NCBI GenBank assembly: GCA_964241935.1
Contig: CAXSZN010000013.1
Span: 5,133 to 69,132 of the forward strand
From: an uncultured Armatimonadales bacterium
GTDB taxonomy: Bacteria; Armatimonadota; Armatimonadia; Armatimonadales; Capsulimonadaceae
Reading direction: 5' to 3'
DNA length: 64,000 nt
The notes beneath the pieces were generated by a model. It saw only the letters and a program-made list of their open reading frames with translations, made no database searches and was not told the DNA's origin. Positions 1,724 to 63,350 of the stretch are shown here, in pieces. The position numbers and the translations under genes are program-made. The stretch's first letter is position 1. The number at the start of each line of letters is the position of its first letter.

Positions 1724-1778
1724 GCGCTACGTCCTCTGCTATGTGTAAATATACTTTACAATGTGGTAAAATAAGTTT

Positions 1779-1998
1779 ACCAGAACGGGTAGGCATTCGC
1801 TAGAACGAATACCCACCCGCCGTCAGTCTACTTTTTCAGTAGTTGATGGCTCGCAGCGGCTGCTGACGCGACTGCCGCGATAATCTGCGTAATCACTCTG
1901 AGTTTCAGAGCGAACCGCTTGGGTACTTGCTTCAAGAGACTTCACCTCCTTTCGGCAAGATTGAGAAGACAGCCCCGAACAGGCTGTCTTTTCGTTTT
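1779..1998 (+). ncRNA. candidate cis-antisense RNA covering small ORF copy 1
   Basis: Plus-strand extended -10 TGgTAAAAT at 1764-1772. The plus-strand hairpin AGACAGCC(1967-1974)/GGCTGTCT(1982-1989) is followed by TTTTCGTTTT, an intrinsic-terminator shape. Transcript ends are inferred, not observed. Confidence 0.35.
1828..1935 (-). CDS. small hydrophobic/basic peptide, 35 aa (MKQVPKRFALKLRVITQIIAAVASAAAASHQLLKK), candidate type I toxin-like membrane peptide, copy 1
   Basis: AGGAGG, a 9-nt spacer, TTG at 1935-1933, and TAG at 1830-1828. It is below the 60-aa cutoff of the ORF track. The paralog at 2093-2200 differs largely by synonymous or conservative substitutions. Confidence 0.6.
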   Translation of the reverse strand: MKQVPKRFALKLRVITQIIAAVASAAAASHQLLKK

Positions 1999-2043
1999 CA
2001 TTATAACATCGTTTTGGATAACATACTGTGGTATAATCGCAGC

Positions 2044-2262
2044 AGCAAAACGGGCAGGCATTGGCTGTCACCAACACCTGCCCGCCGTCAGGCTACTTTT
2101 TGAGTAGCTGGTGGATCGCAGCGATTGCAGATACAATCGCGGCGATGATTTGCGAAATCACTCTGAGTCTCAGAGTGAAGCGCCAATTGCCTTGCTTCAA
2201 GAAGCATCACCTCCTTTCAGCAAGATTGAGAAGACAGCCCCAACAGGCTGTCTTTTCGTTTT
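2044..2262 (+). ncRNA. candidate cis-antisense RNA covering small ORF copy 2
   Basis: Plus-strand extended -10 TGgTATAAT at 2029-2037. The hairpin AGACAGCC(2232-2239)/GGCTGTCT(2246-2253) is followed by a T-run to 2262. Confidence 0.35.
2093..2200 (-). CDS. small hydrophobic/basic peptide, 35 aa (MKQGNWRFTLRLRVISQIIAAIVSAIAAIHQLLKK), copy 2
   Basis: Same architecture as copy 1: AGGAGG, 9 nt, TTG at 2200-2198, TAG at 2095-2093. By hand alignment, 9 codons differ only synonymously from copy 1. Replacements are mostly K/R, T/S, V/I and A/V. Confidence 0.6.
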   Translation of the reverse strand: MKQGNWRFTLRLRVISQIIAAIVSAIAAIHQLLKK

Positions 2263-2357
2263 CATTGTAGCACTTCCCTCGCATTAGTTCTAAGCAGGAA
2301 ACGACGCTTAAGCAGGCGAACTTAGCAGAGATTTCGCCATCAAGAGGAGACTTATCC

Positions 2358-3407
2358 ATGCCTGAGCCAGCCGCCCTCATTCTGCCGTTTGACTTCGCCC
2401 ATGCGCCCGAACATGAATACCAGGCGATGCACCGCTTTGCCAACATCATGCAGGCGGAAATCCTGCCGGATGACCCGCCGACGCCGCTGACAGAAATGGT
2501 GGCGGAGATGCAGAATATGCCGGACTTTATCAGCGCGTTTGCCTGGGCGGCCTGGGATTTAGAGCAGTCGCAGATTGTCGGCAGCGCCAATGTCGGCTTT
2601 ATGAAGACCGAGGAAAACAAGCATCTTGCCTGGTGCGATCTGGGCGTTCTGCCGGAACTCCGGCGGCAGGGGATCGGACGGCAGCTTCTGGCCGCGATTG
2701 CCGAGGTGCCGCAGCGCGAAGAGCGGCGGCTGCTGATGTTCGGCACCAACGCCCGCGTTCCGGCGGGGGAAGCCTTTTTGGAGCGGCTGGGCGGCGAACG
2801 GGCGATGGAGTCGCATACCAATCAGCTTGTCTTGGCCGATCTGGACCGGACACTTTTAGACCAGTGGATGCTGCCGGACAGCGCGGGCCGCTTCACGCTG
2901 GAGTCCTGGGAAGGGCCGCATCCCGAGGACCTGCTGCCGGCGATCACTGCCCTGAATGAAAAGGCGTGGAACACCATGCCGCGCGACGCCATGGATATGG
3001 AAGACATACACTTCACGCCGGAGCAGATGCGGCAGATGGACCAGCAGACGCTGGCCGGCGGCACCGAGCGCTGGACGCTGGCAACCCGCGAGGCAGCTTC
3101 CGGGAAGTTTGTCGGGTACACGGAAGTTTTGTGGAACCCCAGCCGCCCGCAGATACTGCGTCAAGGCGGCACCGGCGTTTATCCCGAGTATCGTGGCTCT
3201 GGCCTCGGGAAGCGCCTTAAAGCCGTGATGCTGGACCGGGTGCTCCGGGAGCGGCCGGAAGCGCGGTTTGTCCGCACGGGCAACGCCGACTCCAATGGCC
3301 CGATGCTGCGGATCAACCACGCGCTTGGCTTCCGGCCGTACCTGTCCCGCACCGAATGGCAGGTAGAAACGGGGAAAGTGCTGGCTTATCTGGGCGTGTC
3401 CGCCTGA
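2358..3407 (+). CDS. two-domain GNAT family N-acetyltransferase
   Basis: 349 aa with two acetyl-CoA-binding-like motifs, LRRQGIGRQLL and YRGSGLGKRLK. Confidence 0.75.
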   Translation: MPEPAALILPFDFAHAPEHEYQAMHRFANIMQAEILPDDPPTPLTEMVAEMQNMPDFISAFAWAAWDLEQSQIVGSANVGFMKTEENKHLAWCDLGVLPELRRQGIGRQLLAAIAEVPQREERRLLMFGTNARVPAGEAFLERLGGERAMESHTNQLVLADLDRTLLDQWMLPDSAGRFTLESWEGPHPEDLLPAITALNEKAWNTMPRDAMDMEDIHFTPEQMRQMDQQTLAGGTERWTLATREAASGKFVGYTEVLWNPSRPQILRQGGTGVYPEYRGSGLGKRLKAVMLDRVLRERPEARFVRTGNADSNGPMLRINHALGFRPYLSRTEWQVETGKVLAYLGVSA

Positions 3408-23127: not shown

Positions 23128-23200
23128 TGCACCCGGAGCGATTTGAACGCCCGACCGATCGCTCCGAAGGCGATTGCTCTATCCACTGAGCTACGAGTGC
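23128..23200 (-). tRNA. tRNA-Arg (anticodon UCG)
   Basis: Hand-folded cloverleaf: acceptor GCACTCG/CGGGTGC, D arm GCTC-AGTGGATA-GAGC, anticodon stem ATCGC/GCGAT with loop CTTCGGA, and T arm GGGCG-TTCAAAT-CGCTC. Confidence 0.85.
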
Positions 23201-55706: not shown

Positions 55707-55779
55707 GGGAGTATAGCTCAGTTGGTAGAGCAGCAGACTCTTAATCTGCGGGTCCACGGTTCGAGCCCGTGTGCTCCCA
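55707..55779 (+). tRNA. tRNA-Lys (anticodon CUU)
   Basis: Acceptor GGGAGTA/TGCTCCC, anticodon stem GCAGA/TCTGC with loop CTCTTAA, and T arm CACGG-TTCGAGC-CCGTG. Confidence 0.9.
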
Positions 55780-63267: not shown

Positions 63268-63350
63268 GCCGAAGTGGCGGAATGGCAGACGCGGAGGTCT
63301 CAAAAACCTTTGGGGGCAACCTCGTGGGGGTTCGAGTCCCCCCTTCGGCA
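63268..63350 (+). tRNA. tRNA-Leu (anticodon CAA), long variable arm
   Basis: Acceptor GCCGAAG/CTTCGGC, anticodon loop CTCAAAA, a long variable arm, and T arm GGGGG-TTCGAGT-CCCCC. Confidence 0.9.

Follow-up and report, generated by a model that had tools for sequence, protein, structure and literature searches.

Tandem repeat units upstream of a gamma-glutamyltranspeptidase gene represent a candidate family of type I toxin-antitoxin modules in Armatimonadota

Organization of the locus

The stretch of DNA analyzed here, 64,000 nucleotides of contig CAXSZN010000013.1 from an uncultured bacterium of the order Armatimonadales (hereinafter the window), contains a 634-nt intergenic gap between the genes for a gamma-glutamyltranspeptidase (GGT) and a GNAT family acetyltransferase, with a GC content of approximately 49%, compared to approximately 65% in the flanks. 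Two tandem direct-repeat units occupy most of this gap (1762-2275; start-to-start spacing 265/264 nt), and each ~265-bp unit is probably a self-contained sense/antisense cassette that belongs to a new type I toxin-antitoxin family. On the minus strand of each unit, the motif AGGAGG and a 9-nt spacer precede the TTG start codon of a 35-codon open reading frame (ORF); both ORFs are co-directional with the GGT gene and are located directly upstream of it (Table 1). The units are 76% identical across the part that includes the ORF and the 3′ hairpin (1762-1918 vs 2027-2183) and 91-92% identical across the part that includes the ribosome-binding site (RBS) and the 5′ hairpin; no third copy was detected within the window.

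This organization had been outlined in an initial annotation made from the sequence of the window, which described direct repeats of ~265 bp with a full set of expression signals on both strands. The spacing of the repeats agrees with that description, every motif listed for either strand lies at the position given for it, and the two ORFs and their peptide products are as proposed.

Table 1. Features of the locus in window coordinates. P1 to P4 denote helices of the consensus RNA fold described in the text; SD, Shine-Dalgarno sequence; MFE, minimum free energy
Feature	Position	Strand	Remarks
GGT gene	146-1723	minus	Pfam G_glu_transpept, E = 1e-135; downstream neighbour, outside the module
Unit 1 antisense extended -10 TGGTAAAAT	1764-1772	plus	Predicted antisense RNA 1, ~1779 to 1999
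Unit 1 hairpin P4, CGGGTGGGTATTCG-loop-CGAATGCCTACCCG + GUUCUGG	1780-1819	minus	Predicted mRNA 1 terminator, weak U-run
ORF 1, 35 aa, MKQVPKRFALKLRVITQIIAAVASAAAASHQLLKK	1828-1935	minus	TTG start; diverged paralogue, GGT-proximal copy
Unit 1 structure enclosing SD and start codon	1926-1959	minus	CTTGC 1959-1955 with GCAAG 1930-1926; AGGAGG 1950-1945; TTG 1935-1933
Unit 1 hairpin P1 + T-run	1962-1999	plus	Predicted antisense RNA 1 terminator; mRNA 1 5′ stem-loop
Unit 1 sense promoter, extended -10 TGTTATAAT	2008-2000	minus	
Unit 2 antisense extended -10 TGGTATAAT	2029-2037	plus	Predicted antisense RNA 2, ~2044 to 2263, ~220 nt
Unit 2 hairpin P4 + GUUUUG	2045-2084	minus	Predicted mRNA 2 terminator; complement = antisense RNA 2 5′ hairpin
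ORF 2, 35 aa, MKQGNWRFTLRLRVISQIIAAIVSAIAAIHQLLKK	2093-2200	minus	TTG start and TAG stop codon; putative toxin
Unit 2 intra-ORF hairpin P3b (AUCGC-C-GCGAUUG ... CAAUCGC-U-GCGAU)	2115-2146	minus	Encodes core IAAIVSAIAAI
Unit 2 intra-ORF hairpin P3 (TCACTCTGA-gac-TCAGAGTGA)	2158-2178	minus	Codons 8-15
Unit 2 translation-initiation structure (P2a enclosing P2b)	2191-2224	minus	MFE fold and RNAalifold helices 38-43/69-74, 50-54/60-63
Unit 2 hairpin P1 + T-run (GAGAAGACAGCC-loop-GGCTGTCTTTTC-GTTTTC)	2227-2263	plus	Predicted antisense RNA 2 terminator; complement = mRNA 2 5′-terminal stem-loop
Unit 2 sense promoter, extended -10 TGCTACAAT	2272-2264	minus	
GNAT acetyltransferase gene	2358-3407	plus	Other flank of the gap

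A family of short basic peptides under purifying selection

A profile of the two window peptides searched against 1.84 billion representative proteins retrieved 11 short relatives at E <= 6e-9, and a second profile, built from an alignment headed by a longer gene call, retrieved 70 metagenomic proteins that fall into subfamily A (55 proteins, 35 aa, consensus MRQGNWRKALKLRVIAQTIAAIVSAIAAIHQLLKK) and subfamily B (15 proteins, 38 aa, consensus MSKNLRRAFVKVRPIAQTIAAIVSAIAAILRILKSLGF). Most of these ~70 homologues are exactly 35 or 38 aa long and most retain the Shine-Dalgarno (SD) sequence, the start codon (with interchange of TTG and ATG) and the position of the stop codon; the 70 are without Pfam domains, and their names are uninformative. 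Two further proteins retrieved by the first search, P0003 (2038 aa, 31 stretches) and P0013 (784 aa), matched through repeats of low complexity and were set aside as non-members. In the genome collection, the matches come from two Armatimonadota metagenome-assembled genomes, one of Capsulimonadaceae and one of Armatimonadales. For the comparative analysis, 29 non-redundant units from 27 loci (denoted below by L numbers) were used, and the RNAalifold consensus was computed on 24 subfamily A units.

The two ORFs of the window differ in 19 codons, 9 synonymously and 10 not, and the differences are distributed over the three codon positions as 6/7/13; the recount reproduces exactly the hand count from which a coding-selection signature had previously been proposed, and the homologues bear this signature out. 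Among 22 distinct subfamily A ORFs, the variability of the three codon positions is 0.48/0.38/0.92 bits, the ratio of nonsynonymous to synonymous polymorphism (pN/pS) is 0.31 in the ORF frame compared to 1.2-1.4 in the other sense frames, and every frame except that of the ORF is interrupted by stops in 6-22 of the 22 units. Furthermore, over the shared 14-codon core, subfamilies A and B differ at third positions only. Given the pattern of codon-position variability, the in-frame pN/pS and the restriction of the A/B differences to third positions, the 35-codon ORF is, on this comparative evidence, a real gene under purifying selection. Two other frames can be dismissed as genes. An antisense frame with a pN/pS of 0.43 has its wobble positions in common with the ORF frame and contains stops in 15 of the 22 units, and an overlapping 84-aa ORF (1823-2077, minus strand), already noted as unconserved in copy 2, is indeed lost there and lies in a frame with a pN/pS above 1.

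An AlphaFold2 model based on the family alignment consists of a single helix (residues 5-34, pLDDT 87). The peptide is strongly basic, with a net charge of +6/+7, basic residues at both termini and a KK tail, and contains a near-invariant core of small residues, AAxxSAxAA. Its best stretch includes 12 hydrophobic residues of 15, the mean Kyte-Doolittle value of the best 19-aa segment is 1.6-1.9, and the hydrophobic moment (1.0-1.4) is similar to that of TisB, a short amphipathic helix. These properties place the 35-aa peptide within the operational criteria for toxins of this type given by Fozo (2010; PMC2887945), namely, 16-70 aa, at least 10 hydrophobic residues of 15, a polar C-terminus and tandem intergenic location.

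Of the two copies, ORF 2 is the more similar to the single-copy orthologues, and orthologues in L001, L002 and L004 differ from it mostly at synonymous sites. ORF 1 carries the replacements W6K and I29S at positions that are otherwise near-invariant, and a paralogue of this type recurs as the second copy in L004 (LKQVPWRIALKLRVISQIIAAVASVAVAIHQLLKK; L004 3076-3180), so the duplication predates the split between the window and L004. The loss of W6 and I29 in copy 1 could reflect relaxed constraint or a new function acquired after this old duplication. Copy 1 also has a weaker terminator U-run and the antisense box TGGTAAAAT.

Covarying RNA helices and the strand under selection

Compared to shuffled sequences, the predicted ~215-nt transcripts of the window yield folding z-scores of -9.2 and -7.7 on the sense strand and -8.3 and -5.9 on the antisense strand, and recurrence of the unit with the same signals in 27 related loci shows that it is not a chance arrangement. 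The RNAalifold consensus comprises six helices. P1 lies at the 5′ end, P2a closes over the SD and the start codon, and P2b pairs the SD with bases that immediately precede the start codon or overlap it; P3 and P3b are located within the ORF, and P4 follows the stop codon. These helices covary: 25 of 56 pairs show changes on both sides with pairing kept, standard pairs make up 95.9% of the cells compared to 38-48% when the partners are slid, and none of 500 column shuffles reached the observed number of compensated pairs. In unit 2, P2a is formed by CTTGCT (2224-2219) and AGCAAG (2196-2191), and P2b by the SD AAGGAG (2216-2211) and CUUCUU, which overlaps the TTG start (2200-2198). Across the relatives, P2a is found in compensatory variants such as CTTGC/GCAAG, CTTGTCG/CGACAAG and CTCGC/GCGAG, and P3 in the variants CTCTGA/TCAGAG, GTCTTGA/TCAAGAC and CTCTCA/TGAGAG, with both-side changes in 5 of its 6 pairs. 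The paired changes between the two window copies that had drawn attention to the post-ORF hairpin extend to the relatives, with both-side changes in 9 of the 11 inner pairs of P4. P1 covaries across the relatives as well.

Each G·U pair reads as an A·C mismatch on the complementary strand, and the strand on which a helix is selected can therefore be told from the ratio of G·U to A·C. This ratio was determined both on the MAFFT/RNAalifold alignment (Table 2) and with a separate, strand-neutral hairpin finder, which for P4 gave 69 G·U and 1 A·C. The wobble pairs in P2a, P2b, P3, P3b and P4 are sense-specific, and these five helices are accordingly mRNA structures. P1 shows the opposite bias: over five columns, the sense strand has 16 A·C and 4 G·U (26 and 4, respectively, by the hairpin finder), which is suggestive of a leaning toward the antisense strand.

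Table 2. Pairing of the helices on the two strands
Helix	Standard pairs, sense	Standard pairs, antisense	G·U	A·C
P2a	97.9%	81.2%	24	0
P2b	100%	54.7%	43	0
P3	96.5%	86.8%	18	4
P3b	93.6%	84.3%	31	2
P4	96.3%	75.7%	86	7

The near-invariant core of the peptide, IAAIVSAIAAI, is an amino-acid palindrome and is encoded in all members by an inverted repeat, GCGATTG...CAATCGC (2115-2146 and 1850-1881 in the window), that corresponds to P3b (RNAalifold columns 118-131/136-149). The same bases are thus subject to both protein and RNA-structure constraints, a possible explanation for the extreme conservation of the core across both subfamilies.

Subfamily B follows the same structural plan, with a GGAGG...CTCC SD/anti-SD hairpin abutting the ATG. 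Every unit of this subfamily also has a second small hairpin, TTTGCTG-loop-CAGCAAA, immediately after the terminator (L024 2705-3395; L026 2736-3117; L025, L027). In several units, e.g., L003_3076 and L004_2827, an unconstrained helix finder instead paired the 3′ arm of P1 with ORF nucleotides 8-15 (codons 3-5; GCTGTCTT/AAGGCAGC). The mRNA could thereby adopt a second conformation with an occluded start region; this pairing is without support in the RNAalifold consensus and was not retained.

Promoters and terminators on both strands

The initial annotation had placed extended -10 boxes on both strands of each unit, and both are kept at defined spacing in the relatives. On the sense strand, a TGnTAnAAT box precedes P1 by 9-10 nt in 24 of 27 subfamily A units and is found on the wrong strand in none of the 27. 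On the antisense strand, 22 of 26 units have the box TGGTATAAT, TGGTATACT or TGCCATAAT at a distance of 11-18 nt ahead of the inner stem of the P4 complement, compared to 4 of 26 on the wrong strand. The chance rate of extended -10 boxes is about 1%, and the sequences outside the promoter boxes are unrelated between loci. In the TGCCATAAT subgroup, a GTTTAC -35 element is kept at 17 nt with a variable spacer. Candidate antisense promoters are present in subfamily B as well, TTGACA-N17/18-CAnACT or TATAAT (L025), and are inconsistent.

The plus-strand hairpins, previously read as intrinsic terminators, proved to be the only sites called by a terminator scan of the region 1500-2600 (1962-1994 and 2227-2258, both with 13-pair stems). 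Only on the antisense strand do P1 and the TTTTCGTTTT after it form a canonical intrinsic terminator.

Gene neighbourhoods, copy number and decay

Subfamily A units are usually linked to GGT: in the window and in L001, L002, L004, L009-L013 and L023, the GGT gene is located ~105-380 nt downstream on the same strand, and this linkage holds despite a different neighbour on the opposite side (GNAT, SAM synthetase, ParB or a beta-propeller protein). Adjacency to GGT is nonetheless common rather than obligatory. Other members are found between a histidine kinase gene and an ankyrin gene (L018), with an ankyrin gene downstream (L018-L020), upstream of thyX (L021) or facing a convergent downstream gene (L022, L024-L027). 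Within the window, a 23-nt segment of the 5′ coding region of GGT (1590-1612) forms an inverted repeat of 87% identity with the core of ORF 1 (1859-1881). A trans-acting link to GGT through this repeat was rejected: the other GGT-linked loci show matches of only 8-12 nt, so the complementarity is probably due to chance, or else lineage-specific.

The units are multicopy. L018 and the GGT-linked L010 lie on the same 777-kb contig, indicating several loci per genome, and tandem pairs are found in the window, L003, L004, L006/7, L012, L013, L018, L019, L023 and L026, with a triplet in L024, so that tandem arrays, present in at least 11 loci, are a family trait.

Some copies have decayed. L005 has TGA at codon 6 (its contig ends before the ORF of the second copy), L003_2788 has CTT at the start position and thus no start codon, L019_351 has a frameshift, and the ORF of L006_2661 is broken by a ~100-nt insertion that resembles a miniature inverted-repeat transposable element (MITE). 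The initial annotation had held that relatives with a disrupted ORF and a conserved nucleotide sequence would point to a pure RNA element; such copies do exist, as a minority, and three of the four (L003, L006 and L019) lie beside an intact copy. The insertion in L006 (~2755-2865; same place in L007) falls in the upstream copy, within the 3′ end of its ORF, and removes the C-terminal KK. Its terminal inverted repeats, CCCGAGTTGCTACC...GGTAGCAACTCGGG, and the ACTTAA on both sides are reminiscent of a MITE and its target-site duplication. In L022 (4001-4108), a compensated double frameshift over P3 (+T, then -1 nt 14 nt later) converts VLKLR to AFETQ, which alters part of the peptide yet preserves the nucleotide sequence.

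Other toxin-antitoxin genes and defence genes are frequent in the neighbourhoods. A gene for a PemK toxin adjoins subfamily B units (L014-L017, 2876-3253 region), genes for HigB-like and HTH_3 proteins and AbiEi_3 surround the GGT-linked unit of L023 (1-525, 6191-6782), and genes for an N6/N4 methyltransferase and a ParB-like protein are located upstream in L012, with a methyltransferase gene also in L014.

A candidate type I toxin-antitoxin family and the alternatives

Based on the above considerations, the unit can probably be regarded as a type I toxin-antitoxin module, and it displays further traits typical of such modules, namely, tandem duplication, multiple copies, decayed copies and a location among toxin-antitoxin and defence genes. 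Every computable prediction of the type I layout, put forward as a candidate in the initial annotation, came out as expected; the comparison added SD/start sequestration, two intra-ORF hairpins, the co-directional GGT gene, the recurrent tandems and the disrupted relatives. That both strands are transcribed, that the two RNAs interact and that the peptide is toxic is what we infer from these patterns, and since toxicity, transcription and antisense control all have this standing, 'candidate' is the right word.

Under this interpretation, the minus-strand extended -10 would direct the synthesis of a ~213-nt mRNA that opens with the 5′ stem-loop P1, holds its SD and start codon locked in the nested helices P2a and P2b, encodes the 35-residue, strongly basic single-helix peptide and ends at the GC-rich terminator P4. 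The opposing extended -10 beyond P4 would produce an antisense RNA of ~220 nt that, owing to the cis arrangement, is perfectly complementary to the whole mRNA and ends at the P1 complement and its U-run. The antisense RNA is expected to pair with the mRNA, probably via loop-loop contacts of the mirrored P3, P3b and P4 hairpins, and thereby to block the RBS and/or create a duplex substrate for RNase III, keeping the peptide off. When the level of the antisense RNA falls, the stable, structured mRNA would be translated, and the peptide would insert into the membrane and damage it. The double sequestration of the SD and the start codon suggests that translation is off by default. Sequestration of the SD also recurs in the hok, aapA1 and tisB toxin mRNAs.

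Several observations weigh against this interpretation. The sense terminators have poor U-runs in several units (e.g., ...CTCTTGTCACA in L010, L012 and L013), in subfamily B no antisense promoter recurs consistently at the corresponding place, and the strand bias of P1 stems from some nine independent events against some four, which is why it is graded as suggestive and not as decisive. The placement upstream of GGT in many subfamily A loci is atypical for a selfish module, and searches of plasmid, phage and viral-contig collections gave zero family matches. In addition, most of the known type I toxins are less cationic than this peptide.

The main rival keeps the same anatomy, with synthesis tuned by an antisense RNA in cis, but takes the peptide to be a small protein of the membrane or of regulation that is not toxic, has a physiological role, e.g., in modulating a membrane complex or in GGT-related metabolism, and shows no addiction behaviour. 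This explanation, possible albeit doubtful, draws on the strong purifying selection and the AAxxSAxAA core, suggestive of specific helix packing, on the GGT-adjacent position conserved in many genomes, on the failure to find the family on plasmids or phages in the collections searched, and on a peptide more basic than typical toxins. However, diverging tandem paralogues, multiple loci and pseudogenes beside intact copies would be odd for a housekeeping small protein, every copy carries its own promoter, terminator and antisense signals, and the double SD/start sequestration suggests translation that is off by default.

A more far-reaching, and in our view unlikely, possibility is a superfamily confined to Armatimonadota in which a ~215-bp duplex encodes co-extensive mirror-image RNAs, the terminator of each being the 5′ hairpin of the other, and which acts as a switch of GGT. 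The core IAAIVSAIAAI would then be fixed jointly by protein function and by P3b as the sense-antisense recognition site, the conserved placement next to GGT would stem from genuine coupling, and read-through from the cassette or interference by the antisense promoter would set GGT expression. Were this the case, the module would be a switch of glutathione/gamma-glutamyl metabolism, not a selfish element.

The remaining rivals are minor. A short, leaderless peptide with a charge of +6/+7, a single helix, a hydrophobic moment of 1.0-1.4 and tandem gene copies is also what would be expected of a cationic amphipathic peptide that is released or cytolytic, in the manner of phenol-soluble modulins or leaderless bacteriocins, with the antisense RNA only modulating its level. 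This is improbable: no conserved transporter, immunity or maturation genes are found in the heterogeneous neighbourhoods, and the copies do not form an operon, each being a unit of its own that is predicted to be silenced at the level of translation.

The conserved synteny with GGT raises the hypothesis of a leader peptide, with translation of the ORF deciding on termination at P4 before GGT. The unit lies upstream of GGT on the same strand at ~105-380 nt in many loci, even where the other flank differs, and P4 starts ~8 nt past the stop codon, where it would be overlapped by the terminating ribosome. This attenuation scheme is very improbable and is largely refuted by context: members are located upstream of unrelated genes (L018-L021) or face a convergent gene, leaving nothing to attenuate (L022, L024-L027), and in tandem arrays the upstream copy precedes another copy. 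Moreover, the whole peptide is conserved with synonymous drift, unlike leaders with regulatory codons, an opposing promoter is conserved between P4 and GGT, and the hairpins of the consensus fold are independent, with no competing antiterminator. Equally hard to sustain is a pure RNA element, i.e., a structured small RNA from one or both strands with an incidental ORF, which would account for the dense covarying structure along the whole unit and for the four to five relatives that keep the RNA with a disrupted ORF (L005, L003_2788, L006_2661, L019_351 and L022) but not for the period-three variation, the pN/pS of 0.31 confined to the ORF frame, the SD, start and stop kept in most of the ~70 members, or the small number of disrupted copies, three of four next to an intact one.

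A type I toxin-antitoxin module thus is the interpretation that we favour. A literature search found no paper that pairs type I systems with Armatimonadetes, and the units are a candidate for an undescribed family in Armatimonadota, a phylum without reported type I systems. Type I systems have been stated to be known from three phyla only, apart from the cyanobacterial candidate of the same study (PMC12390103, 2025), and homology-based searching is suspected of having narrowed this range artificially (PMC12390103; PMC5367252). If the interpretation is correct, the range of type I systems extends to Armatimonadota, a deep-branching and scarcely cultured group. The comparative support is unusually strong, with ~70 members, covarying helices and a strand-resolved G·U/A·C asymmetry, and the G·U/A·C strand test is transferable to other cis-antisense loci. 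The unit is also an example of overlapping constraints, in which protein coding, mRNA structure and antisense structure would act on the same bases, and the predicted sense/antisense pair of ~215 nt is compact, fully delimited and directly synthesizable.

Comparison with known type I systems

Four representative peptides, including those of the window and the consensus, gave no match above noise in Pfam, NCBIfam or PADLOC, and no match to the Pfam families Ldr_toxin and Fst_toxin even at E <= 10. No Rfam family comes near its threshold in the region 1500-2600, where the matches at E <= 10 are noise (a trypanosomatid snoRNA at E = 0.78; Chloroflexi-1 at 14.7 bits against a gathering score of 80); the only gathering-level matches in the whole window are three tRNA genes (23128-23200, minus; 55707-55779, plus; 63268-63350, plus). 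The earlier impression that the peptide lies outside the known toxin families thus holds, and judged by sequence the locus is a member of no catalogued type I family (Ibs/Sib, Ldr/Rdl, Fst, Hok/Sok, TisB). By analogy, it appears closest to Ibs/Sib in layout, to Ldr/Rdl in toxin size and repeats, and to AapA1/IsoA1 and hok/sok in control through folding of the SD region.

In the Ibs/Sib systems of Escherichia coli (QUAD/SIB repeats), the antisense RNA spans the toxin ORF and the RBS (T1TAdb, PMC8594479; PMC2887945), as is predicted here, several copies of the locus exist, some of them in tandem in a single intergenic region, and the product is a small hydrophobic peptide. However, the Ibs peptides are 18-19 aa long and uncharged, compared to 35 aa and +6/+7 here, and the Sib antisense lies within the mRNA, whereas the RNAs predicted here are roughly co-extensive, with terminators that complement the 5′ hairpin of the other RNA. 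There is neither an Rfam match to Sib nor sequence similarity, and the hosts are Proteobacteria rather than Armatimonadota. The long direct repeats of E. coli, Ldr/Rdl, and the related Fst/RNAII share with the present family a 35-aa toxin with a single hydrophobic helix and a basic C-terminus, occurrence as tandem long direct repeats and a stable structured mRNA, but Rdl pairs with the 5′ untranslated region and not with the whole ORF (PMC8594479), and the leader ORF of Ldr/Rdl has no counterpart here.

The control proposed for the present family resembles that of AapA1/IsoA1 of Helicobacter and of hok/sok, in which the mRNA fold sequesters the SD and translation is off; AapA/IsoA antisense RNAs overlap the ORF, and the systems form chromosomal multicopy families (PMC6733600; PMC8594479). 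SD sequestration in the toxin mRNA recurs among the hok, aapA1 and tisB systems (PMC6733600). The peptides show no relationship, and the folds differ in that AapA1/IsoA1 and hok/sok use long-range 5′-3′ pairing and 3′ processing for activation, whereas here the SD is held locally by P2b inside P2a and no signal for processing is apparent. Zor/Orz was likewise found as a tandem duplicate with similarity that extends beyond the ORF (PMC2887945), and charged residues matter for ZorO toxicity (PMC9860968). In ZorO/OrzO and TisB/IstR-1, however, the antitoxin is divergently encoded without overlapping the mRNA (PMC8594479), and there is no sequence similarity to the present family.

The recently described MsoT1/MsoA1 of Microcystis (2025) is likewise a type I candidate found by its features and not by homology, outside Proteobacteria, Firmicutes and Tenericutes (PMC12390103). 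It belongs to another phylum, the toxin is unrelated and larger, and the antisense RNA covers the 3′ end only (PMC12390103). MsoT1 comes with toxicity data, whereas the family described here is known from sequence, with much deeper comparative support.

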